Assembly (NCBI GenBank): GCA_943354905.1
Contig: CALRDL010000002.1
Coordinates: 6,478-70,477 of the forward strand
Direction of reading: 5' to 3'
From: Candidatus Nomurabacteria bacterium
Lineage (GTDB): Bacteria; Patescibacteriota; Minisyncoccia; Phycocordibacterales; UBA9973
Length of the DNA: 64,000 nt
The position numbers and the translations under genes are program-made. How positions within the stretch are numbered: the first letter of the stretch is position 1; each line of letters starts with the position of its first letter. The notes below the pieces were generated by a model. The model had not been told where the DNA came from. It saw only the letters and a list, made by a program, of their open reading frames with translations, and made no database searches. Of the stretch, positions 28,543 to 51,485 are shown piece after piece.

Positions 28543-29202
28543 ATGAAAATTAAGGATTTTGACAAAGTAGATTTACCACGCGAAAAACTTGCGAAATACG
28601 GCTCAGGTAAATTAAAAGATCACGAACTTCTCGCAATTCTTCTCGGTTCTGGAATAAAAGGGCTGAATGTACTTGAACTTTCTAAAAAAATTCTCAAGGT
28701 TGTTGAGAAAATCGGAATAAAAAATATAACACTAAAAGATTTATTAGAAATAAAAGGACTTGGTAATGCTAAAGCTTCGCAAGTGTTCGCATTGTTTGAA
28801 TTGGGGAAGAGATTAAATTCCGATAATAAAACAGAAATTCTGTCAGCTAAAGATATTTGGAAATTATGCTCCGATGTCTGCGAATCAAAGAAAGAACATT
28901 TTCTCGCATTTTATTTAGATACACAAAATAGATTAATTGAAAAACAAGTTATTTCAATCGGCACGCTTAACTCAAGTCTTGTTCATCCAAGAGAAGTTTT
29001 TGAACCAGCTATCGCACTTCATTCAGCAAGCATAATAATTGCACATAATCATCCATCTCAAGATCTGACTCCATCTGCCGAAGATAAGAAAATTACAGAA
29101 AGACTTGTTGAAGCAGGGAAAATTTTAGGAATTGAAATTTACGACCATGTTATTTTGAGCAAATCGGGTTATCTAAGTTTTCAAAAAGAACATCTACTCT
29201 AA
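28543..29202 (+). CDS. radC: RadC-like JAB-domain protein
   Basis: Contains LLAILLGSG..G.NV...LGNAKA (HhH region) and the JAMM motif IIAHNHPSQDLTPSAEDKKIT. Confidence 0.8.
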   Translation: MKIKDFDKVDLPREKLAKYGSGKLKDHELLAILLGSGIKGLNVLELSKKILKVVEKIGIKNITLKDLLEIKGLGNAKASQVFALFELGKRLNSDNKTEILSAKDIWKLCSDVCESKKEHFLAFYLDTQNRLIEKQVISIGTLNSSLVHPREVFEPAIALHSASIIIAHNHPSQDLTPSAEDKKITERLVEAGKILGIEIYDHVILSKSGYLSFQKEHLL

Positions 29203-29261
29203 AACACCAAATACAGAACAAAAAGTTTTCCACAGGCTAGGGGGTTGCTTTTTTAGTTTAA

Positions 29262-29867
29262 ATGCAGTATACTATCTGTATGTATATGAAAATATCAAAT
29301 TTCGCAGAGGTAATAAATGGCTATACCTTTAGAGGAGCCATAGAAACTGCTGAAAATAGGGATATTCTTGTATTACAGGCAAAAGATATAACCCAAGGAG
29401 AAAATGTCACAGAAATTGAAAAACTAACCCCTATTTCCTTCAAGGGCACTCGCACAGCTTCATTTCTTCAAAAAGACGACGTCCTTGTAGTTTCTCGTGG
29501 TATGGGTGTTGGTTCGTTTCGTTCTGTCATTTTTAGTTTAGATACTTCTAATATTATCGCCTCATCATCACTTTTAATTTTAAGAATAAAAAATAAAGAA
29601 GTACTGCCAGAATACATATCGCTCTATTTTAATTCAATAGAAGGACAGAATAAAATTTTAGAAACAGTAGCGGGTTCATACATACGGGCAATATCACGGA
29701 AAAAGTTTGAAGAAGAAATAAAAATACCAATACCCCCGCTAGTAATACAACATTCTTTAATCAAACTAAACCAAAACATCAAACAGCAAGAAAAAATATA
29801 TGATAGGAAAAAAGAACTTAAAAAAGAAATTATTAACGCAACTATTACAAATTTAATTAAGAAATAA
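29262..29867 (+). CDS. hsdS: Type I R-M specificity subunit, half-size (single target-recognition domain)
   Basis: 201 aa with the N-terminal VINGYTFRG TRD start and a C-terminal conserved coiled region. It sits directly upstream of hsdM. Confidence 0.55.
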   Translation: MQYTICMYMKISNFAEVINGYTFRGAIETAENRDILVLQAKDITQGENVTEIEKLTPISFKGTRTASFLQKDDVLVVSRGMGVGSFRSVIFSLDTSNIIASSSLLILRIKNKEVLPEYISLYFNSIEGQNKILETVAGSYIRAISRKKFEEEIKIPIPPLVIQHSLIKLNQNIKQQEKIYDRKKELKKEIINATITNLIKK

Positions 29868-29868
29868 T

Positions 29869-31386
29869 ATGACTACACAAAAAGAAATAGAAAAACAAGA
29901 AGAATTAAACAAAGTCCTATGGGATTCAGCAAATTCTTCCCGTAGTCAGCTTAACGCTGCAGATTATATGGGCTATGTTTTACCCATGCTTTTTTTAAAG
30001 TATCTAAGTGATAAATCAAAACAAGCACACGAAGAATACAAAAAACGTTTTGGATCTGATGAAAAGCGTGTTGAAGAAAAAATGAAGCTTGACCGATTCT
30101 TTCTTCCTAAAAAAGCTTCATTTGATTATATCTATTCTATTATAGAGCAAGATAATTTGGGAGAAGAAATAAATAAAGCTCTTGAGCGAATAGAAGATGC
30201 AAACAAAGAAAAGCTTGAGGGTGTATTTAGTGTAGATTTCAATTCTGAGTCATCGCTTGGAAAATTAAATGAAAGAAATAAAATGTTGCGGAACCTTGTT
30301 AATGATTTTGCAAAAATTGACCTCTCAGAAGTGAAAGACGACATTATTGGTAATTCATATATGTATCTTATTGAACGCTTTGGGGCTGACGCAGGAAAAA
30401 AAGCGGGAGAATTTTTCACCGTGAGAAATGTCGCACACTTAGTGGCAAAACTTGCTGAGCCAAAATCGGGAGCTCGTATATGCGACCCTTGTTGCGGATC
30501 CGGCGGGCTACTTTTACTCGCAGGAGAAGAGGTAGAAAAACAAGGTTCAACAAATTATGCTCTCTATGGGCAAGAATCAACAGGTTCCACATATCAGCTT
30601 GCTCGAATGAATATGTTTCTTCATGGAAAAGATTCTGCTCGTCTTGAATGGGGTGATACTTTAAATAATCCTCTGCTTGTAGAAAATGACCACCTTATGA
30701 AGTTTGATAATATCGTAGCGAACCCACCTTTTTCTCTTAAGAAATGGGGTGCTGAACACGCTGATGCAGATAAATATAAAAGATTTTGGAGAGGTGTTCC
30801 ACCAAAAGATAAAGGAGACTTTGCATTTATTACCCACATGATAGAAACAGCCAAGCCAAAGACGGGACGCATTGCTGTTATTGTTCCTCATGGTGTACTT
30901 TTCCGCTCTGGCGCGGAAGGTAAAATCCGTGAGCAATTAATCAAAGAAAATATTATTGATGCTGTTATTGGACTTCCTGCGGGATTATTTCAAACTACTG
31001 GTATCCCTGTCGCTATTCTTGTAATAGATAGGTCAAGAGAAAAAGGTGGAGCAAATGAAAACAAAAAAGATATTTTCTTTATAGAGGCCTCAAAAGAATT
31101 CAAGGCAAACAAAGCTCAAAATATTCTAGCCGAAGAAAATATTGAAAAGATTTATTCCACATACAAGAAAAGAAAAGATGTAGAGAAATTTGCTCGGAGT
31201 GTAAAGTTTTCAGAGCTTGAAGAAAATGATTTTAATTTGAACATCACTCGCTATGTAGATACTTTTATAGAAGAAGAACCAGTGAACATAAAAGCAAACT
31301 TAAAAGAGCTTGCGGAATTAGAACCACAGCTTCAAAAATTGGAAAAACAAATGGTCGCGTATTTAAAGGAATTAGGGGTTAAATAA
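29869..31386 (+). CDS. hsdM: Type I R-M N6-adenine DNA methyltransferase subunit M
   Basis: HsdM N-domain, AdoMet motif CDPCCGSGG, and catalytic motif IVANPPFS. Confidence 0.85.
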   Translation: MTTQKEIEKQEELNKVLWDSANSSRSQLNAADYMGYVLPMLFLKYLSDKSKQAHEEYKKRFGSDEKRVEEKMKLDRFFLPKKASFDYIYSIIEQDNLGEEINKALERIEDANKEKLEGVFSVDFNSESSLGKLNERNKMLRNLVNDFAKIDLSEVKDDIIGNSYMYLIERFGADAGKKAGEFFTVRNVAHLVAKLAEPKSGARICDPCCGSGGLLLLAGEEVEKQGSTNYALYGQESTGSTYQLARMNMFLHGKDSARLEWGDTLNNPLLVENDHLMKFDNIVANPPFSLKKWGAEHADADKYKRFWRGVPPKDKGDFAFITHMIETAKPKTGRIAVIVPHGVLFRSGAEGKIREQLIKENIIDAVIGLPAGLFQTTGIPVAILVIDRSREKGGANENKKDIFFIEASKEFKANKAQNILAEENIEKIYSTYKKRKDVEKFARSVKFSELEENDFNLNITRYVDTFIEEEPVNIKANLKELAELEPQLQKLEKQMVAYLKELGVK

Positions 31387-31439
31387 AATTATTAATCAAT
31401 TTGTCGATGTCGGCAAATGATAATTAAAAAATTAATTAT

Positions 31440-32261
31440 ATGAAAACATCAATTTTTGAAGAATTAAAAAAGATAAATGAATATGGACAAGAATATTGGA
31501 GTGCTCGAAAGCTTGGGGAAGTTTTGGGATATTCAGAATATCGTTTTTTTATTCCAGTTATAGAGAAAGCAAAAAAAGCGTGTGAAAATAGCGGTTTTTT
31601 GCCACCCGACCATTTCGAGGATGTCCACGGTATGGTTCCCATAGGTTCTGGTGCGGAACGTCAAATTTCTGATACAAACATGTCTAGATATGCTTGTTAC
31701 CTAGTTGTTCAGAGTGCTGATTCTTCAAAAGTGATTGTAGGAAAAGCAAAATCATATTTTGCAATTCAAACCCGTAGACAAGAAACTCAAGACCAACTTT
31801 TAGATGATAGCAAGCGAGTTATGCTTCGTGGTGAAATGACAGAACATAATAAAAAACTTGCGAGTGCTGCAAAATCTGCGGGTGTTTTCAATTATGCTAA
31901 TTTTCAAGATGCTGGATATATAGGACTTTATGGCGGACTTCGTCAAAAAGATATTCATGCTCGAAAAAAATTAAATGAAAAACAAAGTATTCTTGATCAT
32001 ATGGGGAGTGAAGAATTAGCTGCGAATTTATTCCGAGCAACTCAAACAGAAGCAAAACTTCGTCGTGAAAATATTCGTGGTCAAGGATTAGCAAGTACTG
32101 CCCATCAAGAGGTCGGTGCAAAAGTTCGGAAAACTATTATTGAATTGGGTGGCACAATGCCTGAAAACCTGCCAACAGAGGAAAGTATTAGAGAGCCGAA
32201 AAAGAGACTGAAGGCAGTAAATAGAAAATTATTAAAAGGTAGTAAAAAGAAAGATAAATAA
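31440..32261 (+). CDS. DinD-like (DNA-damage-inducible protein D family) protein
   Basis: Contains YGQEYWSARKLGEVLGY...HFEDV..MV.IGSGAERQI.D...SRYACYL...YFAIQTRRQE, matching remembered E. coli DinD. Confidence 0.5.
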   Translation: MKTSIFEELKKINEYGQEYWSARKLGEVLGYSEYRFFIPVIEKAKKACENSGFLPPDHFEDVHGMVPIGSGAERQISDTNMSRYACYLVVQSADSSKVIVGKAKSYFAIQTRRQETQDQLLDDSKRVMLRGEMTEHNKKLASAAKSAGVFNYANFQDAGYIGLYGGLRQKDIHARKKLNEKQSILDHMGSEELAANLFRATQTEAKLRRENIRGQGLASTAHQEVGAKVRKTIIELGGTMPENLPTEESIREPKKRLKAVNRKLLKGSKKKDK

Positions 32262-32342
32262 ATTATCCACAACCATATCGTCCCATACGGACAAAATGGT
32301 CAAAACAGTCGAATTTAAAAGAATTAAGGGTTAAATAAATAT

Positions 32343-32972
32343 ATGAAACAAGAATATACACCACCAGCATATAAAGAAACAGCATTTAATTGTCCATTTT
32401 GTAATGCTTACGCTAATCAATTTTGGGATAGTCTCGCTAAGGTTGAACGTGCAAAATGGCATTATAGTGATGTTGATGGATGTGTGTGTACTCGTTGTGG
32501 TCATGAATCAATTTGGTTTAAAAATATAATGGTCTATCCTTCTTTTGAAGGAGTTCAGCCCCCAAATCAGGATTTAAGCGAAGATATTCAATTTGATTAT
32601 CAGGAAGCGGCATCGATACTTCAAAAATCGCCTCGTGGAGCGGCGGCTCTCCTTCGTCTTGCTATTCAAAAGTTATGTAAAGAGTTCGGAGAAGAAGGAA
32701 AAAACATTAACACTGACATAAAAAATCTTGTTGCAAAAGGTTTACCATCAGCCGTTCAAAAATCCCTTGATATTGTCCGAGTTATTGGAAACGACGCTGT
32801 TCACCCTGGGCAAATAGATATTAGTGATGATATCGAAACAGCAAAAGCATTATTTAAACTTGTTAATTTAATTGCTGAAAAAATAATAACAGAGAAAAAA
32901 GAGGTCGAAGAAATTTATAATAGTTTGCCTGAATCAAAGCGACAAGAAATTGAAAAGCGTGATTCTAAATAA
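32343..32972 (+). CDS. DUF4145-domain protein (frequent companion of type I R-M loci) with an N-terminal CxxC zinc-ribbon
   Basis: Contains AAALLRLAIQKL...LD.VRVIGNDAVH and an N-terminal CPFC...CTRC. Confidence 0.5.
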   Translation: MKQEYTPPAYKETAFNCPFCNAYANQFWDSLAKVERAKWHYSDVDGCVCTRCGHESIWFKNIMVYPSFEGVQPPNQDLSEDIQFDYQEAASILQKSPRGAAALLRLAIQKLCKEFGEEGKNINTDIKNLVAKGLPSAVQKSLDIVRVIGNDAVHPGQIDISDDIETAKALFKLVNLIAEKIITEKKEVEEIYNSLPESKRQEIEKRDSK

Positions 32973-33789
32973 AAATATGAACACTTTAAAAGAAAGATGG
33001 AGAATGTTTGGTAGTGTGGCTCTTGGTCCTGGGGCAATAATCTTTTCTTTGCTCACTGTAGGAAGTTTAATTGTTGCGTATATTTTTAACACCAACCTAC
33101 TGTTCTCTACACTCCTGACTATTCTTGCCAGTTTTTTTGCAAGTTTTGCCGGTAGTTTTATAAAAGACGACTATGACAAGATAGCAGGCCAAAATGTCTT
33201 GGAGAAAAAAGGTAGATCTGCTCTTCGTACCTTAGAATCATTAAATCGCCAAGTAAAAAGGATTTGTTCTTATGTTAGAGAAGAAATAGATAATAATAAA
33301 AAACCAAATCAGCATTTTTTGGTAGAAATAAATAGGCATATGTTTTCCATGGAAGACAGTATCGCTTCTAGTGTTGAAGATTGGGTGGATGTTATTCCCG
33401 AACTTGCTCAAACTATGGAAGAAATAAGAAAAATTAATAAGTTGTCTTTTGAAATTGAAGACTTAAAACAGAAAGAGCAAGAACACCAGAAAAATGAAGA
33501 AGATGGTGCTAAAAAAGAGGGTGAGTTAAGAAAAATAATTGAAGAGAAAGAATCGAGCTTAAGAGAATTACGACAAAAAAGAAGCATGTCAAATAATACT
33601 GTACTATTTAATCCTTCTATTATTTCTAACGGTGGGTCACCGTTTGCTTATCCAAACCAAGTTTTTCTTTCGTCTCCTTGTGCTAATTGCGGAAATCCAA
33701 TTGATCTCAGTTCTCCAATTTTGAGACTAAATTCAAGTCTTTGCCATAACTGTCAGGGCGCTGGAGGGCTTTATGCTAGAGCTTCATAA
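32950..33789 (+). CDS. Membrane-anchored coiled-coil protein (hypothetical) inside the hsd locus
   Basis: Two N-terminal TM helices, a charged coiled-coil middle region, and a C-terminal CANCG...CHNC. Confidence 0.3.
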   Translation: MKSVILNKNMNTLKERWRMFGSVALGPGAIIFSLLTVGSLIVAYIFNTNLLFSTLLTILASFFASFAGSFIKDDYDKIAGQNVLEKKGRSALRTLESLNRQVKRICSYVREEIDNNKKPNQHFLVEINRHMFSMEDSIASSVEDWVDVIPELAQTMEEIRKINKLSFEIEDLKQKEQEHQKNEEDGAKKEGELRKIIEEKESSLRELRQKRSMSNNTVLFNPSIISNGGSPFAYPNQVFLSSPCANCGNPIDLSSPILRLNSSLCHNCQGAGGLYARAS

Positions 33790-35050
33790 AAGTAAAATGA
33801 AACCTAACCAATCACAAAAAAATATTTCAAAAGAATGGCAAACAAGAAAACTAGACAGTATGTTTACCGTGCGTCGAGGTGGGTCACCAAGACCAATTGA
33901 AAGTTATATTACAAATAGAGCTGATGGGTTAAACTGGCTTAAAATTGGCGATATTGACGTTGGTGCAAAATATATTACGAAAACTAGTAGTAAAATCTTA
34001 AAAGAAGGATTATCTAGAACAACACTGGTCAAAAAAGGAGATTTTATACTTTCTAATTCCATGAGTTTTGGAAGACCATATATTATGGGTATAGATTCGT
34101 GTATTCACGACGGCTGGCTAACTTTTCAAGATATTAAAACTAATATTTTAGATCGTGATTTTTTATATTATCTACTTTCACAATCAAAAACCCAAGCAAT
34201 ATTTACATCAATTTCTGCTGGTTCTGGTGTTCAAAATTTAAAAAAAGAAACTGTTTCTGGTGTTGTATTATCAATTCCTCCTCTCCCTGAGCAAAACCGC
34301 ATCGTTGCAGTGCTTGAAACTTGGGACAAGGCGATTGAAAATTTAAATAAGAAAATTGAAATTAAAAAACAAATTAAAAAAGGTTTGATGCAGGATTTGT
34401 TGACTGGCAAAAAAAGATTAAGTGGATTTAAAGAAAAATGGGAAACAAAAACATTGGGAGATGTTTCTGATTTCATTAATGGCTATACCTTTAAAAGTGG
34501 AAATTATGTTGATGGAGGAAAGTATAAAATTATAACGATTGCTAATGTTCAAGATGGATTTATGTTTATTGACGAACCTAAAACCATTAATGAATTACCG
34601 GAAAATATAGGTAAGGAACAAATTTTAAAAAAGGGAGATATTTTAATATCTATGACGGGGAATGTTGGAAGAGTTTGTGTGGTCAATAGTGATAACTGTC
34701 TACTAAATCAAAGAGTTGGCAAAATTATGACTAAAGATATTAATAAGGAATTACTGTATTTATTTTTATACGATAGAAGGTTTCTATATCAAATGATTGG
34801 AAGTGCACAGGGTGGAGCACAAGCAAATTTATCAACCGAAGATATAAAAGAATATATTTTTGATCTTCCTAAAACAAAAGAAGAACAAAATGCTGTTGCT
34901 GAAATTTTAACTACTGCTGATAAGGAAATTACAGAGCTAGAAAAGAAATTATCAATTATAAAAGATCAGAAGAAGTTTTTATTAAACAATTTAATCACTG
35001 GGGCGATTCGAACTCCGGTGAATATGCAGTTGTACGGAAAAATCGTATAA
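33773..35050 (+). CDS. hsdS: Type I R-M specificity subunit, full length (two TRDs)
   Basis: 425 aa with two TRDs separated by the central conserved helix (PPLPEQNRI...) and the C-terminal repeat (LPKTKEEQNAVAEIL). Confidence 0.8.
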   Translation: MLELHKSKMKPNQSQKNISKEWQTRKLDSMFTVRRGGSPRPIESYITNRADGLNWLKIGDIDVGAKYITKTSSKILKEGLSRTTLVKKGDFILSNSMSFGRPYIMGIDSCIHDGWLTFQDIKTNILDRDFLYYLLSQSKTQAIFTSISAGSGVQNLKKETVSGVVLSIPPLPEQNRIVAVLETWDKAIENLNKKIEIKKQIKKGLMQDLLTGKKRLSGFKEKWETKTLGDVSDFINGYTFKSGNYVDGGKYKIITIANVQDGFMFIDEPKTINELPENIGKEQILKKGDILISMTGNVGRVCVVNSDNCLLNQRVGKIMTKDINKELLYLFLYDRRFLYQMIGSAQGGAQANLSTEDIKEYIFDLPKTKEEQNAVAEILTTADKEITELEKKLSIIKDQKKFLLNNLITGAIRTPVNMQLYGKIV

Positions 35051-35288
35051 CTGAAACATTATCAATTAAAGTTTAATTATGGCGAATATGCCACAAATAG
35101 AAATATGAAAAAGAAACAAACACAAGAAAAGAAAACGACTCCAAAAGAAGAAGAGTGGATGAAGCTATTTAGTGAGGTTACTGGAGCAGTGTTTGTTGAT
35201 GTAACACCAGAGAAATTATCACAAAGAAATTTTAAAGGAGTAAGGGTGTTAAATGGTCGTGTTGTAAATAAAAAGAAATTAAAATAAT

Positions 35289-38200
35289 ATGTTAGAAAAA
35301 GTAAATTTTGATGAGGCAAAGCAGTCGCAACTTCCATTCATAGAGTTGTTATTTAATATGGGCTATAAGTATATTTCGACAGATGAAGCCCTACGACAAC
35401 GTGGTGGTGATACAACAAACTTTATACTTTCTGATATTGCTGTGAAAAAATTGATGGAAATAAACGGCTATGAGGTTGATGAGGTTAAATATAAATTCAG
35501 TGAGAAAGATGTACGAGATGTGATAGACGAAATAGAGCATATTCAATATGAAGGGCTTATTGATACGGCGCAAAATATTTACAATATGATTATGCCGACT
35601 TCTGGAGGCAAGACTATCAAAGTAAGCCATGATGGCAAGCCGATTTCTAAAAACTTTAGATTTATAGATTTCAAAAATATTGAAAATAATAATTTTCATG
35701 TTACGGCTGAATTTACAGCTAGTGGAAAGCAAAATATCCGTCCTGATATTGTTTGTTTTATAAATGGTATTCCTTTTGCAATTATTGAGAATAAGAAAAA
35801 AAGTGTTTCTATCAAAGAAGCTATTGGGGATTTGATAAAAAAGCAAAGTCCTGAATATTGCCCTAAATTATATACTTATGCTCAACTTCTAGTGGCGACA
35901 AATGCTAGTGAATTACAATATGGAACGACTGGGACGTTAAATAAATTTTTTGCTGTTTGGAAAGAGAAAGGAAAAGATATAAAAGAAATAGACGCTCATA
36001 TCAAAGAAATAATGTCTAAACCTATTGATAAAGAAGTCTATTCTCAGATACTCACAGATCTTAATGGGTGGACAAAAGGACATACACAAAAGATAGATAG
36101 GGTTATTACGGGTCAAGACAGAGGTATTGTTTCATTATTTGAGCCGGAAAGACTTTTAGATTTAACTAAAAATCATATTCTTTTTGACGCAGGAGTAAAG
36201 AAAATTTCCCGCTATCAACAATATTTTGCTATTCGTAAGATGTTGAAGAGAATTGAGGAAGAGGAAATTGTAAATGAAGATACTACTCGCCGAAAGGGCG
36301 GGCTTGTTTGGCATACTCAAGGTTCTGGTAAATCTCTCACTATGGTTATGTTTGTGAAAGCTCTTATTGAAGACCCTAAGATTATTAATCCGAGAGTTAT
36401 TATTGTCACAGACAGACGCGACCTTGATAGACAAATTAGAGATACTTTCAAAAATTGTAATTTAAAAAAGGAAGTAGTGCAGGCTACAAGCGGGCAACAT
36501 TTACTCAATTTAATTAAAGAAAAGAATTTAGGCGTTATTACTACAATTATTGATAAATTTGAATCAGCAAGTAAAAAATATGCTAATTTTGTAGATAAAG
36601 ATAATAATATTTTTGTTTTAATTGACGAAGCTCACAGAAGTCAAAGTGGTATGGCAAATTTTGAAATGAATAGGATTATTCCCAATGCTTGTTATATAGG
36701 ATTTACGGGAACACCTTTAATGAGAAGTGAGGGAGAAAGCTGGAGAAAATTTGGCGGATATATTGATAAATATACGATAGATGATGCTCTTGCTGATAAA
36801 ATCATTCTACCTCTTATTTACGAGGGACGATATATAAATTTAGAACAAAATAAAACACAAATAGATAAACATATTGATCGTGTGTCAGAAGATATGAGCA
36901 GGAAATACAATGAAAATACAGTAAGTAATGAGCATAAAATAAAACTCCAAAAGCAAATTACAGCTGATATTCTAAAAAATAATCCACAAAGAATAGAAGA
37001 AATTGCTAGAGACATAGAAAAACACTTCACAGAACATTTCAAAGACACAGGACTCAAAGCTCAAATTGTTGCCCCATCAAAATATTCAGCTATCTTATTC
37101 CAAAACTTTTTTGAAAAGCGCGGAAATATAAATACTGCTGTGGTTATTTCTGACGAGCATGATGACGGCGATGAAGATAATACTCACAAAATAGAAGTAG
37201 TGAAGTATTTAGACAAAATTCGCAAAAATCACAGCAGTATTACGAAATACGAAAAAGATGTTATTGAAAGCTTCAAACATGGCGAAGGTGGAGTTGAAAT
37301 AATCATTGTGGTAGATAAACTCTTGACGGGCTTTGATGCTCCGAGAAATACTGTCTTATATCTTTCTAAAGATCTACATGACCACGGACTACTTCAAGCA
37401 ATTGCTCGTGTAAATAGACTTTTTGAAAATAATAAACTACCAAAGACGGCTGGATATATTATTGATTATTCAGAAAATGCTAAAAACATAGATACAGCTA
37501 TGAAGCTTTTCGGTAACTATGACGAAAATGATGTTAAAGGAACACTGATTGATGTATCAGAGAAAATAAATGAATTAGAACAGAGTTATGGTTTAATTCA
37601 TGACTTATTTAATGAAATAAAAAATTCGTCTGACGACGAAGTTTATTTGCAATTTCTTAAGGATGAAGCAAAAAGAGAAATGTTTTATAAAAGCTTAAAT
37701 GATTTTATAAGAAACTTAAATGAATGTTTTATTTTACAGGATTTTGTTCATGAATTCAAAGATAAGATAGGAATGTATAAAAAAGATTTAAAGAAATTTA
37801 TGGAAATCCGAAAATCAGCCAGTCTTCTTTATAGAGAAAGGGTGGATTTGTCAGAATATAAACAGTCATTGATTAAAATTCTTGATAAATATGTTGACGC
37901 CAAAGGAGTTGAATTGCTCACAAAACAAGTAAATATTACAGACAGGGAGCAATTTAAAGAAGCTGTTGAAAATCTTGGTTCTAATAAATCAAAAGCGGAA
38001 GCGATAGCCTCTCAAACACAAAGAACTATTAGCGAACAAATGTATAAAGATCCAGAATTTTTTGAAAGATTTTCAAAGAAGATAGAGGAAATCATAGAAA
38101 AAATGAGGTTGGGAAAATTAGCGGATATTGAAGCCCTAAAGCAAATGAGACTCATTAGTGACGATGTGCTCAATAAAAAAGGAGATGACTTGCCAAAGGA

Positions 38201-38507
38201 GATAAAAGGGCTAAATGGCTCAGATGTCTTTTATCGTAATTTAAAGGTCCAATTTGAGGGTTTAGGGGTCAATAATGGGGTATATGTCTCAATTGTCCTA
38301 GATATTTTCTCTATACTTAAACAGGGAGCAATAATTGACTGGCAGAAAAATATGGATGTTAAAAGAAAAATTAGAAACACAATTGATGACTATTTATATG
38401 ATGTAGTAAAAGGAGAAAAAGGAATAGATATTGATAGTGATTTTATTAAATCAATTATTGATACCATTATGCTTTTAGCTGAAAATAACTTTGAACTATT
38501 TTTATAA
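35289..38507 (+). CDS. hsdR: Type I R-M restriction subunit R (helicase/endonuclease)
   Basis: 1072 aa with PD-(D/E)xK N-domain residues, GSGKSLTMV and DEAHRSQ helicase motifs, and a C-terminal helical domain. Confidence 0.85.
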   Translation: MLEKVNFDEAKQSQLPFIELLFNMGYKYISTDEALRQRGGDTTNFILSDIAVKKLMEINGYEVDEVKYKFSEKDVRDVIDEIEHIQYEGLIDTAQNIYNMIMPTSGGKTIKVSHDGKPISKNFRFIDFKNIENNNFHVTAEFTASGKQNIRPDIVCFINGIPFAIIENKKKSVSIKEAIGDLIKKQSPEYCPKLYTYAQLLVATNASELQYGTTGTLNKFFAVWKEKGKDIKEIDAHIKEIMSKPIDKEVYSQILTDLNGWTKGHTQKIDRVITGQDRGIVSLFEPERLLDLTKNHILFDAGVKKISRYQQYFAIRKMLKRIEEEEIVNEDTTRRKGGLVWHTQGSGKSLTMVMFVKALIEDPKIINPRVIIVTDRRDLDRQIRDTFKNCNLKKEVVQATSGQHLLNLIKEKNLGVITTIIDKFESASKKYANFVDKDNNIFVLIDEAHRSQSGMANFEMNRIIPNACYIGFTGTPLMRSEGESWRKFGGYIDKYTIDDALADKIILPLIYEGRYINLEQNKTQIDKHIDRVSEDMSRKYNENTVSNEHKIKLQKQITADILKNNPQRIEEIARDIEKHFTEHFKDTGLKAQIVAPSKYSAILFQNFFEKRGNINTAVVISDEHDDGDEDNTHKIEVVKYLDKIRKNHSSITKYEKDVIESFKHGEGGVEIIIVVDKLLTGFDAPRNTVLYLSKDLHDHGLLQAIARVNRLFENNKLPKTAGYIIDYSENAKNIDTAMKLFGNYDENDVKGTLIDVSEKINELEQSYGLIHDLFNEIKNSSDDEVYLQFLKDEAKREMFYKSLNDFIRNLNECFILQDFVHEFKDKIGMYKKDLKKFMEIRKSASLLYRERVDLSEYKQSLIKILDKYVDAKGVELLTKQVNITDREQFKEAVENLGSNKSKAEAIASQTQRTISEQMYKDPEFFERFSKKIEEIIEKMRLGKLADIEALKQMRLISDDVLNKKGDDLPKEIKGLNGSDVFYRNLKVQFEGLGVNNGVYVSIVLDIFSILKQGAIIDWQKNMDVKRKIRNTIDDYLYDVVKGEKGIDIDSDFIKSIIDTIMLLAENNFELFL

Positions 38508-39213
38508 TATGAAAAAATTTGTCTTTGGAACATTCATATATGAATATCATCTTATCAAACAAGATAGAAAAACTCTTTCTTTGACAGTTGTTCCCGATTT
38601 AAAAATCATTCTTAAATGTCCGCATAATGCTGATGATAAGAGGATAGAGGAATTTTTGAAAAGAAAATGGTTTTGGCTAGAAAAACAACTTTCCTTTTTC
38701 AAGAAATATCAAAGAAATATTTACCAAAAAGAATATATTTCTGGCGAGGGATATTTATATCTTGGCAGACAATACAAACTTGTCGTTAAACACGGCAAGG
38801 AAGATCTGGTCACCCTTACAAAAGGCAAACTAATGGTGTCTTCGACTAAATTAGTATCAAATGGCAATTACAATAAAAAATTGATTGATATTTGGTTTTT
38901 AGAAAAAATGCAGAAAATCTTTCAAGAAAGATTTTCTGCTATGTTGGATAAATTTGATTACAAAAATAATCCAGTTTTGAAAATACGAGAAATGAAAAAA
39001 CGCTGGGGTAGTTTTTTGAATAAAGACAAAATTTTTCTCAATCCCAAGCTCATTAGTACACCAAAAGAATGTATTGATTACGTAATAGTTCATGAGCTTT
39101 GTCATCTAAAATACAAAAATCATGACAAAAGGTTTTTTGAGTTGTTCAATAAAAAATTTCCAAAATGGGAAAAAGTTAAAGATAAATTAGAAATTTTAGG
39201 AGTAGGTATTTAA
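38491..39213 (+). CDS. DUF45/YgjP-like (M48-related) zinc metallopeptidase
   Basis: Contains YVIVHELCHL (HExxH) and lies downstream of hsdR, a known association. Confidence 0.55.
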   Translation: MNYFYNMKKFVFGTFIYEYHLIKQDRKTLSLTVVPDLKIILKCPHNADDKRIEEFLKRKWFWLEKQLSFFKKYQRNIYQKEYISGEGYLYLGRQYKLVVKHGKEDLVTLTKGKLMVSSTKLVSNGNYNKKLIDIWFLEKMQKIFQERFSAMLDKFDYKNNPVLKIREMKKRWGSFLNKDKIFLNPKLISTPKECIDYVIVHELCHLKYKNHDKRFFELFNKKFPKWEKVKDKLEILGVGI

Positions 39214-39214
39214 T

Positions 39215-39452
39215 TGAAGCCCACCCTCGCCCCATCGCCCATACCAAAAAAAAGAATTCCCCCCCCGCCAAACTAAAATAGAATGGAAATGCGATGGAGT
39301 GAGGGCAGACGACGAGCTTAAGCTCGTCGTGGCGGAATTGTTAGCGTTACCACATTAGTAGAGCGTGAAAAATAGTTTAGAAAAATAATAGTCGTAGAGC
39401 GTGAGATTAAGTATTTTGCTGGAAAAAAGTTCGTGCAAAGGTTAGGATTACT
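39215..39452. repeat. GC-rich repeat modules (homologous to 27317-27400 in inverted orientation) preceding the recombinase left inverted repeat
   Basis: The shared string is cctcgcccc..cccataccaaa...cccccgc..aaa...atggaaatg..tgg. Confidence 0.5.
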
Positions 39453-39591
39453 CCGCAAATTGAAACTTCCTCGGCAGAAAGCGAAAAAAGCGGGCGCGCC
39501 AAAGGCGCGGTATGAAGTGATGAAATGAAATCCGCCTTGCGGGTGCAGGTGAAAATGGAGGGCGGGCAGAAAAAGAAATGAGATTGAAATA
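39453..39591. repeat. Left terminal inverted repeat (~139 bp) of the serine-recombinase element
   Basis: Its reverse complement matches 41018-41149 almost perfectly, with a single ~7-nt indel. Confidence 0.75.
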
Positions 39592-39620: not shown

Positions 39621-41198
39621 ATGAACAAACCAAAATATTTTCTCTATGCTCGCAAGTCCACAGAAGATGATGACAGACAAGTCATGTCCATTGAAGCACA
39701 GCTTTTTGAATTGCGTGAATTTGCGAGCAGAGAAAATCTTGAAATTCTTGAAGAATTTCAAGAGTCAAAAAGCGCAAAGAGTCCGGGACGAAGTGTCTTC
39801 GGCGAAATGATGAATAAAATTGAAAGTATGGATGGTGTTGGTATTCTTGGATGGCACCCGGATCGTTTAGCGAGAAATTCAATTGACGGTGGACGCATCA
39901 TTTATGCCGTAGACACTACAAAAATAGTTTCTTTACGCTTTCCGACATTTTGGTTTGAACCCACACCGCAGGGGCTGTTTATGCTTCAAGTGGCATTCGG
40001 ACAAAGTAAATATTATTCTGACAACCTAAAACAGAATGTTGAGCGAGGTTTTCGCCAAAAACTGCGACGAGGTGAATGGCTAACGCGCGCGCCATTTGGT
40101 TATGTGAACAATTTAATTACGCACAATATTGAACCTGATCCGGTGAAATCTAAAATCATCGTGCGCGCGTACAAAGCGTACGCAACAGGTTCACATACTC
40201 TCGTTTCGTTATCGCAGTTTTTGGCGGAACATGGTGTTGTCCAAAAGTCCGGAACGCCACTTGTCAAAGCTTCCGTGCAAAGAATGTTATCCAATCGCGC
40301 ATATCTCGGCCTCGTCAAACACCACGGCGAGTTCTTCACCGGAAGCTTTGCGTCAATTCTTTCTCCAACACTATTTGAAGCTGTGCAAAAAGTTTTAGAG
40401 AGACGAGCACATCCGAGACATAGCAAGATATCTCACAATTTTCCATTCACCGGTCTTTTTCGATGCGCTGAATGTGACAGTATGATTTCCGCACAATGGG
40501 CAACTGGAAAATGTGGTGGGCGGTATCGGTACTATCGATGCTCGAAAAAACGCGGTGTCTGTTTACAAAAATATCTTCGTGAAGATCTGCTCGTCTCCCA
40601 AATCAGAGAACAGCTTCAAGCAGTGTCGCTTCCCGAAGAGTGGTCGGATTATATGCTCAAAAAGGTAGAAAGATTTGAGCATGAAGAAACCAACGCTTCA
40701 GAAAGTCGGCTCGGGCAGATGAAAGAAGATTTAAAAATGCTTGAAGCGAAACTCGACGCATTAGTTGATTTATACTTAAACAAAGATATTGAAAGAGAAA
40801 TATATTTAGTGAAAAAAGATATTTTAATGCGTCAAAAAATCTCGCTTCAAGCCAAATCTTCATCTACCCGAGCCGAGAGAAAGAATTGGGTCGAACCCCT
40901 GCGGAAATGGATTTTGGATTCAAAACACGCGGGGTTTCTCGCTACGAGTGAAAATCTCCACGAAATGAGAGATTTTCTTCGTTCCTTTGGAACGAACCCC
41001 GCGCTGAATGACAAAACTATTTCAATCTCATTTTGCCCGCCCTCCATTTTCACCTGCACCCGCAAGGCGGATTTCATTTCATCACTTCATACCGCGCCTT
41101 TGGCGCGCCCGCTTTTTTCGCTTTCTGCCGAGGAAGTTTCAATTTGCGGACAGAGTGAGATTCGAACTCACGGTCCTTTTAAGGGGACGGCGGTTTAG
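39621..41198 (+). mobile_element. Large serine recombinase (resolvase/invertase catalytic domain plus recombinase domain plus zinc ribbon). The annotated C-terminus reads through the right inverted repeat and tRNA, so the true stop is uncertain
   Basis: Catalytic-Ser motif YARKSTEDDDRQVMSIEAQ, resolvase fold (GILGWHPDRLAR), and zinc ribbon CAECDSM...CGGRYRYYRC. Confidence 0.7.
41018..41149. repeat. Right terminal inverted repeat of the serine-recombinase element, ending exactly at the 3' end of the minus-strand tRNA
   Basis: Reverse complement of 39453-39591. The last bases (..ATTTGCGG) overlap the tRNA acceptor/discriminator. Confidence 0.75.
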
Positions 41199-41233
41199 TA
41201 AACCGCTCCCGTAAACCACTTGGGTATCTGTCC
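41147..41233 (-). tRNA. Type II (long variable arm) tRNA, Ser-like, with apparent anticodon ACT (unusual); CCA not encoded
   Basis: Minus strand: acceptor GGACAGA/TCTGTCC with discriminator G, D-stem CCC/GGG, anticodon stem-loop GCGGT-TTACTAA-ACCGC, long variable hairpin GTCC..GGAC, T-arm GTGAG-TTCGAAT-CTCAC. Confidence 0.45.
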
Positions 41234-41333
41234 AGATACAAATCGAGTATAGCAGAAAAAAATAAAAAATGCAGAGAAATTTATGGAAAAATACAAGAAA
41301 TATGTTAGAGTAGTTAAGTAATAGATTACGTAT

Positions 41334-41423
41334 GGAGCCGTGGGAGAGCGGTCTAATCTACATCTTTGCTAAAGATGCAGGGGTTAAACCCCCTCGCGAG
41401 TTCGAATCTCGCCGGCTCCGCCA
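41334..41423 (+). tRNA. tRNA-Ser(GCU), CCA encoded
   Basis: Acceptor GGAGCCG/CGGCTCC with discriminator G followed by CCA, anticodon stem-loop CATCT-TTGCTAA-AGATG, long variable arm CAGGGGTTAAACCCCCT, T-arm GCGAG-TTCGAAT-CTCGC. Confidence 0.7.
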
Positions 41424-41465
41424 AAATTGGGAATCCGCATTTCTGGCGGGAATGCTTCACCCGAA

Positions 41466-41667
41466 TTTTTGTGGTATCTACTGGACAAAGTTCGAATGTT
41501 TTTTGCTAATAATCCTGACGACCAATGATGCGCGCCTCGTTCGCTCCCTGTGGTCGCGGGAGCAAAAACCAAAAATTTTCCTTACCTTTCTTATTTTCCT
41601 CGGCGGGGGGTGTGGGGGGGGGAGCCGACAAAAAATGGAAAGGAAATTTTTGGTTTTGCTTCGCCGC
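41466..41667. repeat. Inverted repeat copy 1 (~200 bp, GC-rich, with G6/G9 homopolymers) bounding the xre-fic cassette
   Basis: Its reverse complement matches 43846-44047. The central 150 bp are near-identical and the edges diverge. Confidence 0.7.
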
Positions 41668-41729
41668 TATGTTAATAATATACGAAAATGGTATATTCCA
41701 CAATAGACTATATTATGTTAATATCTATA

Positions 41730-41947
41730 TGTCGAAAAAATATTTGCCAAAATATCAAAAACTCACCGCAAAACTTCTTTCTGCTCGCCTAGAAGCAGGT
41801 TTAACACAGGTTGAAGTAGGTAAAAAGCTCAAGAAACCACAGGTGTATCTTTCTAAGATAGAACGAGGTGAGCGCGGAGTTGATGTGGTAGAATTAGCAG
41901 AACTGGCAAAGATTTACAATAAAGACATTAACTATTTTGTAAAATAA
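41730..41947 (+). CDS. XRE-family helix-turn-helix transcriptional regulator
   Basis: Contains LSARLEAGLTQVEVGKKLKKPQVYLSKIERGER, an HTH_3-type motif. The longer upstream extension given in the ORF track (41525..) lies inside the repeat and is probably not translated. A paralogue lies at 62047-62268. Confidence 0.55.
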
Positions 41948-42115
41948 TATGCCCAGAAACACTGAGCAAAAGAAAAAAGAGATAGAAGGCATCCTGGCTC
42001 GATACGAGGCAGGAATGATTATTCTAAGGCAGAAGCGAGATAAGATTATTTCCACTTTTCTTGAGTTGTTGAAAGAGAAAAAACTTGAAGAATTAAGAAA
42101 TTCACTCAAACAATT

Positions 42116-43576
42116 ATGAAATCCCCCGAAAATTTTACACCACCACAGACAGAAGTATCAAAAACTGAAAGTGAGATGACTCTATCTCCAGAGGTTGAAG
42201 TAGTGGAAGCCACTACTGAGTCGCTGGAACAATACAAAGAAACAGTAGAAGCTCATATTGATGAGCAATCGACAAATATAAATGCAGAAGCTGGACAAAA
42301 GATTGAAAGTTCCGCTAAAAATATGAATGTATCCCCTGAATTACTGGATTCAACAAAAGCAGAGAGTGGGTTAGAAAACCAAATGGCTGAAATTCAAGAT
42401 GAAGCAAATCAATTAAATCGAGTAGTAAAATTAGAGATTTCTGAAACGGTCGCAGAAGCTCCAGTGGAGAACACTCCTGAATCGGAAGTAAATCTCTCGG
42501 GAGGAAATGAATCAAAGGAAGATAAATTAGAAACCGGAGGAAAAGTTTTTGAATTTTTAGACCGCACAAAATTTTTGGATGTTCGAAAATCAGACGAACA
42601 ATTTAATGAGTGGCTTCAAAAACTTTCTTACGAAGATTATACAGATTACGTTACGCGCCTAAATGGTATTTTACGCGAAGTTCCAATAAAAGATCGTGGG
42701 GTAGATGGCGGAGAGGGTGAAGAAGTTTCTATCGGTACTAGAGGATATAATTTTTATGTTCCACCTGGTGCTGAACAAAAAGATGGTTTAATGCGAGAAA
42801 GTTTTCAAGCTCTCAAACAAATACCAGACAACGAAGATCGTGCTCTTTTAGCGTATTATACGATGCAAGCCGTTCACCCGTATGCTGACGGAAATGGTAG
42901 AACTGGTAGATTACTCCATGAAATAATTTCTGAAGACGGTAAAGAAATCACTAGCGAAAAACTCTCTGAACTTTTGGATCATGAGGAAAAAGGGCCGAAT
43001 GCTGTTGGAAAAGGACAAGATATTTTCTCTGAAAGAGTTTTAGAACCAAGCAGTGCGTATGAGTACATTAACCGAGAAGTTGCAAAAGAGGTTCTTGGTG
43101 ATGATTTTTTTAAGCAATATGGCTCTATCCATGTCGAACGTGGAGTTGGTAAAGATGCTGCTTTTTTACCAACAGCAGTAAAAGAAAAATTATCGCCAGA
43201 AGATGTAATTTTAGCTGAAAAAATTTTAGGTGAAGCAGGCATAAAAAATTTCTCTACTAGCGGCATAGTTTTAGCAAGGCTACTTTTGGAAAAAAGTGAT
43301 GAAATTTATAATCAATATCACTACGAGTATCCATTAAATGAGGAGGCTGACATGTCTATGGAGGGTATGGAAAAAAAGTATTTTGGAATTGATGGGCAAA
43401 ATCTTATGGCAAATTTGAGTGAAGAAGATGCACACAGGTTGATAGAAATTCACGCAAGTGTAAAAAATAGATTTATTGAAGACATGATTGATATTTTTGT
43501 ACATCCAGAGAATCGTCAAATGAAAGACGAAAACGGGAAAGATATTCCGATCAAGAGCGTCTTTCGTCGCAGTTAA
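42116..43576 (+). CDS. Fic-domain protein (AMPylase/Fic-Doc family)
   Basis: Canonical Fic motif HPYADGNGRTGRLL and an acidic N-terminal region. A small ORF (~41949-42118) lies between xre and this gene. Confidence 0.7.
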   Translation: MKSPENFTPPQTEVSKTESEMTLSPEVEVVEATTESLEQYKETVEAHIDEQSTNINAEAGQKIESSAKNMNVSPELLDSTKAESGLENQMAEIQDEANQLNRVVKLEISETVAEAPVENTPESEVNLSGGNESKEDKLETGGKVFEFLDRTKFLDVRKSDEQFNEWLQKLSYEDYTDYVTRLNGILREVPIKDRGVDGGEGEEVSIGTRGYNFYVPPGAEQKDGLMRESFQALKQIPDNEDRALLAYYTMQAVHPYADGNGRTGRLLHEIISEDGKEITSEKLSELLDHEEKGPNAVGKGQDIFSERVLEPSSAYEYINREVAKEVLGDDFFKQYGSIHVERGVGKDAAFLPTAVKEKLSPEDVILAEKILGEAGIKNFSTSGIVLARLLLEKSDEIYNQYHYEYPLNEEADMSMEGMEKKYFGIDGQNLMANLSEEDAHRLIEIHASVKNRFIEDMIDIFVHPENRQMKDENGKDIPIKSVFRRS

Positions 43577-43581
43577 GGGAG

Positions 43582-43627
43582 CAATCCCCGCCGTTTTATA
43601 ATATCTCCTAAAAAACGGCGGGGATTT
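43582..43627 (+). terminator. Strong hairpin terminator after fic
   Basis: CAATCCCCGCCGTTTT..(loop)..AAAACGGCGGGGATTTG forms a ~15-bp stem. Confidence 0.5.
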
Positions 43628-43845
43628 GTGCGCGCACAGGGCGGGCGGGGCAAGCACATACAGATTTGTTTGTGCCTAGCACAATCCGCTTTATGAGTTA
43701 CCACTGTTCTCTGTCGAAGCCACAGAGTATCAAGCTACCACAGAACATCGAGAGGAAGCGCCTCGTCTCGCCGCAAGGACGGAGAAATGAACAACGCCAA
43801 AGAACCACAAATGATATAATGAAAATGTTAATTTCATAGTCTGTA

Positions 43846-44047
43846 GCGGCGAAGCAAAACCAAAAATTTCCTTTCCATTTTTTGTCGACTCCCCCCCACC
43901 CCCCGCCGAGGAAAATAAGAAAGGTAAGGAAAATTTTTGGTTTTTGCTCCCGCGACCACAGGGAGCGAACGAGGCGCGCGATTAGTAGCTTTCATCAGGA
44001 TTTAGCTCGAAGTAATTTCGAACTTTGTCCAGTAGATACCACAAAAA
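43846..44047. repeat. Inverted repeat copy 2 bounding the xre-fic cassette
   Basis: Reverse complement of 41466-41667. Confidence 0.7.
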
Positions 44048-44130
44048 TTGGCATAAGGTACATTTTCCGTGGCTTGTTTTGAGGGTTTTACCCTTGTGGT
44101 ATATAACTAGAAGTGCTAACTTTTAATTAT

Positions 44131-44337
44131 GAATTTAAAAAAACAACAAAATATGTAGTATTTGTGGTTCTAGTGAGGTGATTAAAAGAGGAATACAAGA
44201 TGGAGTACAAGTATATAAATGTAAAAAATGTGGAATTAGATTTAGAAATCAAAGAAGAGAGAAAGTAAATTTAGAAAAATATATTTTACCAAAAACTGAT
44301 TTAAAAAGCCACGGAAAATGTATCTTATGCCTCAAAT
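44131..44337 (+). pseudogene. Remnant of an IS transposase N-terminal zinc-ribbon (IS1595/ISXO2- or IS1-like), frameshifted with no intact start
   Basis: The translation ICGSSEVIKRGIQDGVQVYKCKKCGIRFRNQRREKVNLEKY... shows a CxxC-x16-CxxC transposase zinc-ribbon pattern. The only ATG is in another frame. Confidence 0.3.
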
Positions 44338-44877
44338 AATCTAATTTCTGATTTTACAGAAGAAGTTCAAGCATCTATAGAGGTTAAAAAATAGTAGGAT
44401 TCTATAAAATTATAGTTATCCACAACAACTTGAATAATTCCTGTATTTTAGTATACTATAAGTATCTCATTTACCTAGTGTAAAAGGAGCACTTGAAACG
44501 CCTCGCAAGAGGCGTTTCTTGCTATGTGGGGCTAGAATTTTTGGAATACTTTTCAAACTCTTTGCGGTGTCGTTTTTTCTGATATGGATAATCAACGTAG
44601 ATTCCAGTGATAATATAAAATCCATGTTTATTTTCATCTAGTATCACAAGATAGCTACCACATTCTAAATATAGGCACACACGATTTGTTTTTCGTTTAT
44701 TGCAGTAATTTTTTCTTTTGGTACATATATAGAACCAAGCACCATAACTGGGGCTTTATCAAACTCTAAATGGTTGCTTTCGTCGCAGTAAATATTGTAT
44801 TCGGTCATAACGCATTGTATTATAGCAAAATTTTGTAGTTTTTGGGAGCAAAAATCATGCGCGCGAACGGGAGGGTG

Positions 44878-45010
44878 GGTTAAGCACATGCATTCTGTGC
44901 CTCGGGCATTTCCGCTAGGGTGTTCACGATTAAAGGACGAGTGCCTGACCCGAATTGCAATCCATAATCGAAAGCGAAAGCTACACACCAAACATAATAT
45001 TGAAAAACGT
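44878..45010. repeat. GC-rich repeat module (same family as 27727-27833 inverted and 43630-43690)
   Basis: The string gcgaacgggagggtgggttaagcacatgcattctgtgcctcgggcatttccgctagggtg..aaaggacgagtgcct..aattgcaa..agcgaaagc aligns with the other copies. Confidence 0.55.
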
Positions 45011-49632: not shown

Positions 49633-49679
49633 AATTATAAAGGTCGAATATTATTAAATTAATCAAAAAATAAATTATT

Positions 49680-49901
49680 ATGAAACTTTCAAAAATATTT
49701 CATGTTATAGGTGCTATTGTCGGATGGGTTGGAGTTATTGCTCTTTTGAGCGCTTGGTTTGCAAGTAAAAATGGTTTAGTATTAGGAATGAGTGAGACGC
49801 ATCTTTTTATGGATGCAATAGTTCTTGTGCTTGTTGCTATCTGGCTTCAACTTGGAACAATTCACCACATGATGTTGGAGAAGACTGGGGAGAAAATATA
49901 A
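49680..49901 (+). CDS. 73-aa two-TM protein, paralogue family member 1 (C-terminal IHHMMLEKTGEKI)
   Basis: Near-identical family members lie at 51264..51485 and 52840..53061. Confidence 0.45.
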   Translation: MKLSKIFHVIGAIVGWVGVIALLSAWFASKNGLVLGMSETHLFMDAIVLVLVAIWLQLGTIHHMMLEKTGEKI

Positions 49902-51243: not shown

Positions 51244-51263
51244 TAAATTAATTAAAAAATATT

Positions 51264-51485
51264 ATGAAACTATCAAAATTATTTCACGTTCTAGCTGCTG
51301 TTGCGGGATGGGTTGGAGTTATTATGCTTTTCAGCGCTTGGTCTGCCGGAGAAAATGGTACAGTGTTTGGGTTTACACAAACACATCTTTTTACTGATGC
51401 AGCCATACTTGTTTTGGTTGCTATCTGGATGCAACTTGCTACTACGCATCATATGACGCTTGAGAAGACTGGAGAGAAAATATAA
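51264..51485 (+). CDS. 73-aa two-TM protein, paralogue family member 2
   Basis: MKLSKLFHVLAAVAGWVGVIMLFSAW...ATTHHMTLEKTGEKI. Confidence 0.45.
   Translation: MKLSKLFHVLAAVAGWVGVIMLFSAWSAGENGTVFGFTQTHLFTDAAILVLVAIWMQLATTHHMTLEKTGEKI

Follow-up and report, generated by a model that had tools for sequence, protein, structure and literature searches.

Transfer RNAs with an unmodified adenosine at the wobble position (A34) are described in reviews as nearly absent in nature, which is explained by failing fidelity in split codon boxes (PMC6103715). The only tRNAs known to have it are the Mycoplasma tRNA-Thr(AGU) and the yeast mitochondrial tRNA-Arg(ACG), and it is thought to be unsuited to split boxes (PMC6103715). 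Further, an engineered tRNA with the anticodon ACU remained unmodified in Escherichia coli, where it read AGU at 9.4% and AGG at 0.36%, with AGC and AGA below detection (PMC11066159). Here, we analyzed a stretch of 64,000 nucleotides from a Candidatus Nomurabacteria bacterium (contig CALRDL010000002.1, positions 6,478 to 70,477; hereafter, the window), in which a serine tRNA gene with the anticodon ACU stands back-to-back with a tRNA-Ser(GCU) gene, flanked by DNA bounded by inverted repeats (elements A and B). In the literature searched, no bacterial tRNA-Ser(ACU) was found, the sole mention being in a chlorovirus tRNA list; this agrees with the original prediction from this sequence, which had called A34 essentially unknown in bacterial serine tRNAs. 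Ser(ACU) genes have been publicly available at least from the time of the Rifle metagenome-assembled genomes (MAGs), here the related locus L118.

The explanation that fits best, and that we consider likely as a whole, is that the ACU gene encodes a functional serine isoacceptor with an unmodified A34 that decodes AGU, that it belongs to a pair conserved throughout a family, and that element A is a recombinase cassette of tRNA 3' ends. The tRNA locus comprises the following features:

41147–41233, minus strand: tRNA-Ser(ACU), type-II, with A34, G1:C72, G2:C71, A3:U70 and G73 (ARAGORN, Rfam, fold, family alignment)
41334–41423, plus strand: tRNA-Ser(GCU), the canonical AGY isoacceptor, with encoded CCA, conserved partner of the ACU gene (ARAGORN; family highly conserved, 70 loci)
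41234–41333, no strand: A+T-rich spacer of exactly 100 nt between the divergent tRNA genes (blastn against related loci)

ARAGORN called both genes, tRNA-Ser(act) at 41146–41233 (minus strand) and tRNA-Ser(gct) at 41334–41423 (plus strand), among five RNA genes in the window. The ACU tRNA has the acceptor stem GGACAGA/TCTGTCC with discriminator G, a D stem of 3 bp, typical for type-II tRNAs, an anticodon stem GCGGT/ACCGC with the loop TTACTAA (A34, C35, U36), a variable-arm hairpin of four pairs (GUCC-CCUUAAAA-GGAC; 99.6% paired over the 67 sequences described below) and the T-loop TTCGAAT. Its minimum-energy fold is a perfect cloverleaf (z = -3.5), and no CCA is encoded, the 3' end being GCAAA. 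In a local search with the Rfam tRNA model, the gene at 41147–41233 scored 51.7 bits (E 4.3e-10). The type-II minus-strand tRNA of the original prediction was thus borne out by ARAGORN, Rfam, the sequence and the fold, as was, by ARAGORN and the sequence, the plus-strand tRNA-Ser(GCU) with loop TTGCTAA and encoded CCA 100 nt away; ARAGORN, a check proposed there, assigned these same anticodons.

The anticodon loops of the two tRNAs had also been described as differing by a single base. This holds; elsewhere, about half of the aligned columns differ, throughout the stems, and the two genes are therefore not the outcome of a recent duplication. The spacer presumably carries the promoters of both genes. 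It gave 20 blastn matches in 19 related loci (37–78 nt, 73–90% identity), and its GCU-proximal part is the one kept in relatives.

When Rfam was run at the gathering threshold over the whole 64-kb window, neither type-II serine tRNA was listed. In the local run, the ACU gene was well above threshold and the GCU gene was reported under the transfer-messenger RNA (tmRNA) model, which belongs to the same clan. We tentatively attribute the whole-window miss to search filters and not to the gene, and it is a caution for the automated annotation of such tRNAs.

The ACU gene proved to be one of many. A metagenome scan with the pattern GCGGTTTRCTAAACCGCCGTCC, an anticodon arm derived from the window's own tRNA with A or G (R) at position 34, gave 99 matches, 94 of them with A34 (ACU), a 94:5 ratio that is biased to the ACU family because of the origin of the pattern. 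Among the 67 distinct ACU sequences, the acceptor, D and T stems vary widely. Across these sequences, 99.9% of 1608 cloverleaf pairing cells are standard pairs, and compensatory double changes occur at 10 of the 24 pairs (223 cells). Neither the covariation score nor the percentage paired was reached in any of 500 shuffles, and pairing fell to 32–63% in slid-partner controls. Positions G1, G2, A3, U70, C71, C72 and G73, which are the identity elements of E. coli-type SerRS, are invariant across all 67 sequences. CCA is encoded in 24 of 89 ACU and 15 of 70 GCU genes; since it is rarely encoded in either family, its absence from the window's ACU gene is uninformative.

ARAGORN detected 91 Ser(act) and 75 Ser(gct) genes over the related loci (L numbers below), and the divergent ACU/GCU arrangement was present in 63 of the 70 loci holding both, with a spacer of 61–237 nt in 54 of these 63. 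These results show an ACU family conserved in Nomurabacteria-like Parcubacteria (Patescibacteria, or candidate phyla radiation (CPR) bacteria, placed in the NCBI phylum Minisyncoccota) and kept there as a divergent pair with tRNA-Ser(GCU); the back-to-back pair is ancestral. We are therefore highly confident that the ACU gene is a real serine tRNA gene under purifying selection.

In six relatives (L027, L038, L044, L089, L105 and L112), the spacer between the divergent serine tRNA genes measures about 1.06–1.17 kb. In L027, it (2454–3518) holds a 354-aa open reading frame (ORF) in which two LAGLIDADG-like motifs and an N-terminal helix-turn-helix (HTH) were read by eye.

A scan of GTDB species genomes, whose pattern included the window's D-stem GGGA, returned seven GCU genes (from Berkelbacteria, Saccharibacteria and other CPR MAGs) and two matches that were not tRNAs. 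It had first been taken to mean that ACU was unique to the window, which the metagenome scan overturned. As the GCU genes of Berkelbacteria, Saccharibacteria and the other CPR MAGs have the same D and anticodon arms, the backbone of the ACU tRNA is that of CPR tRNA-Ser. Scans of viral contigs gave no match, and a phage origin was dropped for this reason.

A related locus from a named MAG is L118 (assembly GCA_001785985.1), whose FtsH is NCBI-named Candidatus Nomurabacteria bacterium RIFCSPLOWO2_01_FULL_42_17. This locus is syntenic with the window over NDK, RNase J, IF3, SmpB, FtsH, tRNA-Ile(UAU) and RecG, and the Ser ACU/GCU pair follows directly after RecG. At this place, the window has about 15 kb more than L118, with RadC, a type I restriction-modification system, YgjP and the recombinase cassette lying ahead of the pair. 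It was the mobile DNA that came to the tRNAs and not the reverse.

With regard to decoding, we propose that tRNA-Ser(ACU) would be charged with serine, that its A34 would stay a plain adenosine and that it would read AGU by a Watson-Crick A:U pair; the GCU partner would cover AGC and be able to wobble to AGU. The ACU tRNA was not created by the adjoining repeat-bounded DNA. In line with the proposed decoding, AGU is 2.4 times as frequent as AGC in the window, a codon-usage comparison already suggested in the original prediction. Among AGY codons, the share ending in U is 0.72 in the window and 0.58 in ACU-bearing loci, which resembles other two-fold pairs; in 11 GCU-only CPR loci it is 0.34, against 0.53–0.62 for the other pairs there. 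We take this contrast as a weak supporting correlation for a decoder. Further, the arginine tRNA gene near Ser(ACU) in L032, L063, L085 and L097 is Arg(GCG) and not Arg(ACG), and CPR bacteria have been reported to be devoid of tRNA-Arg(ACG), a trait associated with bacteria in which wobble inosine is not used (PMC8629427). Within the limits of sequence evidence, these data support the other possibility raised in the original prediction, namely an unusual decoder, and we lean towards an unmodified, AGU-specific tRNA.

Several points weigh against this interpretation. The 94:5 ratio shows conservation inside the family and not the frequency of the family among CPR bacteria. The absence of TadA from the window organism is presumed from the neighboring Arg(GCG) genes and from the literature (PMC8629427). 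Unmodified A34 has been reported to discriminate poorly in some contexts (PMC6103715). The AGY codon-usage contrast rests on 7,836 control codons, and both G+C content and phylogeny confound it. Finally, the model gives no reason why an A34 tRNA should be confined to the AGY box when all the other boxes seen use G34.

A tRNA-Ile gene with the anticodon UAU lies at 20587–20661 (plus strand) of the window, where ATA occurs at about 30 per 1000 codons, and the same gene is found 3–10 kb from the Ser pair in nine related loci as well as in L118. Bacteria rarely have a UAU decoder for AUA; they usually rely on a CAU tRNA modified with lysidine. This tRNA-Ile(UAU) may be part of the same decoding strategy as Ser(ACU).

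One alternative is that A34 is deaminated to inosine or otherwise modified, so that a single tRNA reads AGU and AGC and, with inosine, also AGA. Encoded A34 does become I34 in most organisms (PMC6103715), and from the sequence some CPR-specific modification is conceivable. However, I34 would read AGA, the commonest arginine codon of the window (15.4 per 1000), and such misreading of the most used Arg codon makes inosine at A34 unlikely; AGA encodes, among others, the second Arg of motif VI of RecQ (GRGGRDG), an invariant helicase motif. Moreover, the loop UUACUAA has U32 and U36, unlike the ACG loop recognised by TadA, and a separate GCU tRNA is retained alongside. CPR bacteria use Arg(GCG) and are reported to be without an I34 system (PMC8629427), and the engineered ACU anticodon was not deaminated even in E. 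coli (PMC11066159). On this evidence, we regard a modified A34 as unlikely and retain the plain adenosine as the preferred state.

Rather unlikely, too, is a specialised tRNA outside bulk translation, either a serine donor for cell-wall or lipid aminoacylation, a regulatory tRNA or mainly a landing site for the cassettes. The ACU tRNA looks redundant beside the GCU tRNA, Staphylococcus is known to have dedicated non-proteinogenic isoacceptors, and recombinase cassettes do use the 3' end of the ACU gene; yet they equally use Glu, Arg and Ser(GCU) genes, and the anticodon is conserved, which would not be expected if it were never read. In addition, the T stem (G49:C65, U50:A64, G51:C63), whose pairs are linked to EF-Tu binding, resembles that of ordinary elongator tRNAs, and AGU is not avoided in ACU-bearing loci but is avoided in GCU-only CPR loci.

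The original prediction's suggestion of a diverged or pseudo copy of tRNA-Ser(GCU), created or captured by the adjacent mobile element, was not upheld and is now very improbable: the ACU gene does abut a recombinase cassette, lacks the CCA that its GCU neighbor encodes and differs from it at a single loop base, but CCA absence is normal in both families, the two window tRNAs differ throughout their stems, scans of viral contigs gave no match, the pair occurs in about 90 environmental contigs, mostly without a recombinase nearby, and in the syntenic Nomurabacteria MAG, the varied flanks of these loci argue against a single copied mobile element, and the 94 independent occurrences (67 distinct sequences) show strong compensatory covariation and intact identity elements.

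What is new, then, is a tRNA found in nature whose A34 is encoded and probably stays unmodified, which serves a split box and which stands next to a G34 partner. As a gene under purifying selection across many Parcubacteria beside GCU, Ser(ACU) would be a natural counter-example to the exclusion of A34; if this is true, the textbook exclusion of wobble adenosine from split boxes is overturned and a natural system for measuring A34 fidelity is at hand. Questions that become testable include the discrimination by A34 of U versus C, A and G on a real ribosome, whether the loss of TadA opened the way to A34 decoders, and how the tRNA set is balanced in very small genomes. For annotation, this means that Ser(ACU) genes ought not to be marked as errors of sequencing or as pseudogenes. 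In its broadest form, the proposal is that a large CPR clade routinely decodes a split box with a dedicated, unmodified A34 Ser(ACU), together with tRNA-Ile(UAU), and that the pair also serves as the landing site for an undescribed class of cargo-less large-serine-recombinase cassettes whose arms evolve in concert; we give this wider proposal about even chances.

Element A, which adjoins the ACU gene, consists of the following features:

39421–39451, plus strand: conserved box GGAAAAAAGTTCGTGCAAAGGTTAGGATTAC, just outside the distal arm (same box in L114, L115 and L117, partly in L047)
39452–39576, plus strand: distal inverted arm of the cassette (repeat search; the independent assembly L004 spans the arm)
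39621–41198, plus strand: large serine recombinase ORF, 525 aa (Pfam Resolvase, Recombinase and Zn_ribbon_recom)
41026–41150, plus strand: proximal inverted arm of the cassette (repeat search; its outer 4 nt coincide with the 3' end of the ACU tRNA gene)

The two arms, of 125 nt each, are 98% identical, and each contains an outward-facing terminator-like hairpin (39495–39509, minus strand, in the distal arm; 41093–41107, plus strand, in the proximal one). The conserved box is promoter-like (TTGGAA-N18-TATAAT in L115). The conserved core of the recombinase comprises aa 1–467 (to 41021), and homology to relatives stops at the inner edge of the proximal arm. The ORF has no stop at the end of the core; it runs through the proximal arm and 52 nt of antisense tRNA and ends at a TAG that is the complement of the ACU anticodon loop. 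A read-through ORF is also present in L114 (315–1892), and the length of many homologues, 510–530 aa, suggests the same in these. The idea of a hybrid tRNA formed by integration at the anticodon loop was rejected, as the arms end at the 3' terminus of the tRNA and the TAG is a mere loop complement.

The same architecture, a core between inverted arms of 106–125 nt, was found in L033, L047, L048, L103, L114, L115, L116 and L117; in L083, for which the order of recombinase and tRNA alone was compared, a convergent recombinase lies beside Ser(GCU). Ser(ACU) is the target in the window, L103 and L114, Ser(GCU) in L033, L047, L048 and L083, Glu(UUC) in L116 and Arg(GCG) in L117; no tRNA was detected at the L115 cassette. 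In nine of the ten copies, the cassette lies at -7 to +6 nt from the 3' end of the tRNA, always convergently. The arms start with the last 4–5 nt of the tRNA, so the tRNA gene stays intact. The tRNAs are thus targets of the cassette and not its products, given that it occurs at 3' ends of several tRNA genes in these bacteria. The hub between two inverted-repeat-bounded elements seen in the original prediction therefore stands as a description, the repeats being real, but the causality runs the other way: both elements are members or derivatives of a recombinase family of tRNA 3' ends.

Arm identity is 97–100% within a copy and 54–73% between copies, with proteins 68–87% identical; being near-identical within a copy yet divergent between copies, the arms evolve in concert. 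The recombinase family counts more than 5000 homologues, the named matches being from Minisyncoccia, Taylorbacteria, Magasanikbacteria, Yonathbacteria and Paceibacteria, and many homologues lie on contigs of 1.7–2.2 kb. In short-read assemblies, contigs from the window's own population end within the arms, and it is because of the recombinase cassette that assemblies of these genomes are interrupted at tRNA-Ser loci.

The cassette is missing beside the same tRNAs in many relatives, but neither an empty site that is strictly orthologous nor a circle junction was found among the related loci. When attB/attP sites were sought from the arm ends and the conserved distal box, the crossover could not be placed. 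An invertible switch is not supported, as all ten copies have the same gene orientation relative to the tRNA. We interpret element A as a cargo-less, tRNA-targeting and presumably mobile recombinase element that sits at tRNA 3' ends and restores their last nucleotides from its own arm. Such cassettes may be a source of compact, site-specific serine integrases.

On the other side of the pair, the region downstream of the GCU tRNA contains the following features:

41464–44049, plus strand: element B, a 2.6-kb cassette bounded by inverted repeats, without a recombinase (repeat search)
41729–41947, plus strand: XRE-type HTH gene, 72 aa, in element B (gene call in L005; Pfam HTH_3)
42116–43576, plus strand: Fic-domain protein, 486 aa, in element B (Pfam Fic, 3.4e-8)
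44050–44331, no strand: 29-nt inverted-repeat pair around a 53-aa ORF, just outside element B (repeat search)
41418–41496, plus strand: putative scar of a second, GCU-targeting recombinase cassette (by-eye comparison with the L033 arms and distal flank)

The arms of element B (about 41464–41669 and 43844–44049) start 40 nt past the GCU tRNA; their inner 140 nt are 92–99% identical and their outer 58 nt 81%. Besides the HTH and Fic genes, a small ORF is encoded, and a short-read contig (L005) holds the interior of the element only. Queries with Fic, HTH and YgjP against the related loci gave no match. The 53-aa ORF reads, by eye, like a zinc ribbon (two C-x2-C motifs) and had no Pfam match.

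The segment 41418–41496 consists of the tRNA end with the first 12 nt of an arm (CCGCCAAAATTG), fused to about 45 nt that look like a distal-arm end and followed by the box TATCTACTGGACAAAGTTCGAA; tentatively, it probably represents the collapsed ends of an L033-type GCU-targeting cassette. The outer 58 nt of the element B arms carry the same end motif. This shared motif and the putative scar lead us to propose, tentatively, that the site downstream of tRNA-Ser(GCU) is an accretion point. A third, diverged copy of TTCGAACTTTGTCC...CCGCCAAAA, the motif of the distal cassette junction, lies at 63779–63834 of the window, with no recombinase or tRNA near.

The window as a whole has a G+C content of 30–43% and encodes adenylate kinase, NDK, RNase J, IF3, FtsH and RecG as well as a tmRNA. 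Its FtsH is 85–88% identical to proteins NCBI-named Candidatus Nomurabacteria, Paceibacterota and 'Patescibacteria group', which places the organism among the Parcubacteria as Nomurabacteria-like. No Ser pair was found near FtsH in L119, a Paceibacterota contig. The region of about 26500–39213, which L118 lacks, is a probable genomic island encoding RadC, a YgjP-like metallopeptidase, a member of the endonuclease/phosphatase family and a type I restriction-modification system that has two S genes.

Relative to tRNA-Ile(UAU), the pair is oriented as in the window in six loci and in the opposite sense in L118 and L020, and relative to RecQ it is flipped in L055 and L073 compared with the window. 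An inversion of the pair by the flanking elements was rejected as not specific to the window, given that both orientations to tRNA-Ile(UAU) occur among relatives; the tRNA pair seems to have been inverted more than once.

Other features were observed in the window. The tmRNA (17255–17647, minus strand; Rfam 109 bits) has an unusually long predicted tag, AKLTSKAKASPYFGMNDFAFAPAFA. An ORF with an IS200-like Y1 transposase domain (9498–10172, plus strand) lies beside a 57-nt repeat at 8847–8903 and 10189–10245. A segment of about 120 nt, without Pfam or Rfam match, is repeated in inverted orientation with 83% identity 17 kb apart (27729–27820 and 44873–44964) and may represent a miniature repeat element or else a small RNA. 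Finally, a 230-nt repeat is present in three direct copies (49672–49901, 51256–51485 and 52832–53061; 66–77% identity, spacing of about 1.58 kb) inside a copper-resistance cluster with CopA, a multicopper oxidase, a CsoR-like protein and HMA/DsbD.

Compared with known recombination systems, element A shares with the large serine integrases of phages and integrative and conjugative elements (Geobacillus virus E2, Bacillus phage z1a) the Resolvase, Recombinase and zinc-ribbon domains and a gene placed beside the host-target junction. It differs from them in that its recombinase is only about 24% identical to phage integrases, and in its lack of cargo, its unit of about 1.7 kb, its arms of 106–125 nt and its location at tRNA 3' ends, which are more typical as sites of tyrosine integrases. 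In common with invertible segments of the Hin/Gin type, it has a serine recombinase gene between inverted repeats; unlike these, it encodes a large recombinase, its arms are about five times longer and it was seen in one orientation in 10 copies.

With regard to the tRNA, Ser(ACU) resembles canonical bacterial tRNA-Ser(GCU) in its type-II structure, G73, G1-G2-A3 start, U33, A37 and A38, and its D and anticodon arms are nearly identical to those of tRNA-Ser(GCU) from Berkelbacteria and Saccharibacteria; it differs in having A34 for G34 and a shorter variable arm (16 nt), and in being kept beside a different GCU gene. The engineered orthogonal Methanocaldococcus jannaschii ACU tRNA (Front Genet 2024, PMC11066159) has the same anticodon, stayed A34 and preferred AGU over AGC by at least 95:5, which is the behavior proposed here for the CPR tRNA; in contrast to the latter, it is an artificial tyrosine-type tRNA studied in E. 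coli, where it showed slight reading of AGG (0.36%). Finally, the Mycoplasma capricolum tRNA-Thr(AGU) and the yeast mitochondrial tRNA-Arg(ACG) are, like the CPR tRNA, encoded with A34 in reduced genomes where wobble deamination is missing or is not applied (PMC6103715, PMC11066159), the unmodified state being probable for the CPR tRNA. Those tRNAs serve four-fold boxes as sole or super-wobbling decoders, where poor discrimination of the third base is harmless, whereas the CPR Ser(ACU) belongs to the split AGN box (Ser AGY, Arg AGR) and has a G34 partner adjacent to it, both in the window and in 63 of 70 related loci.

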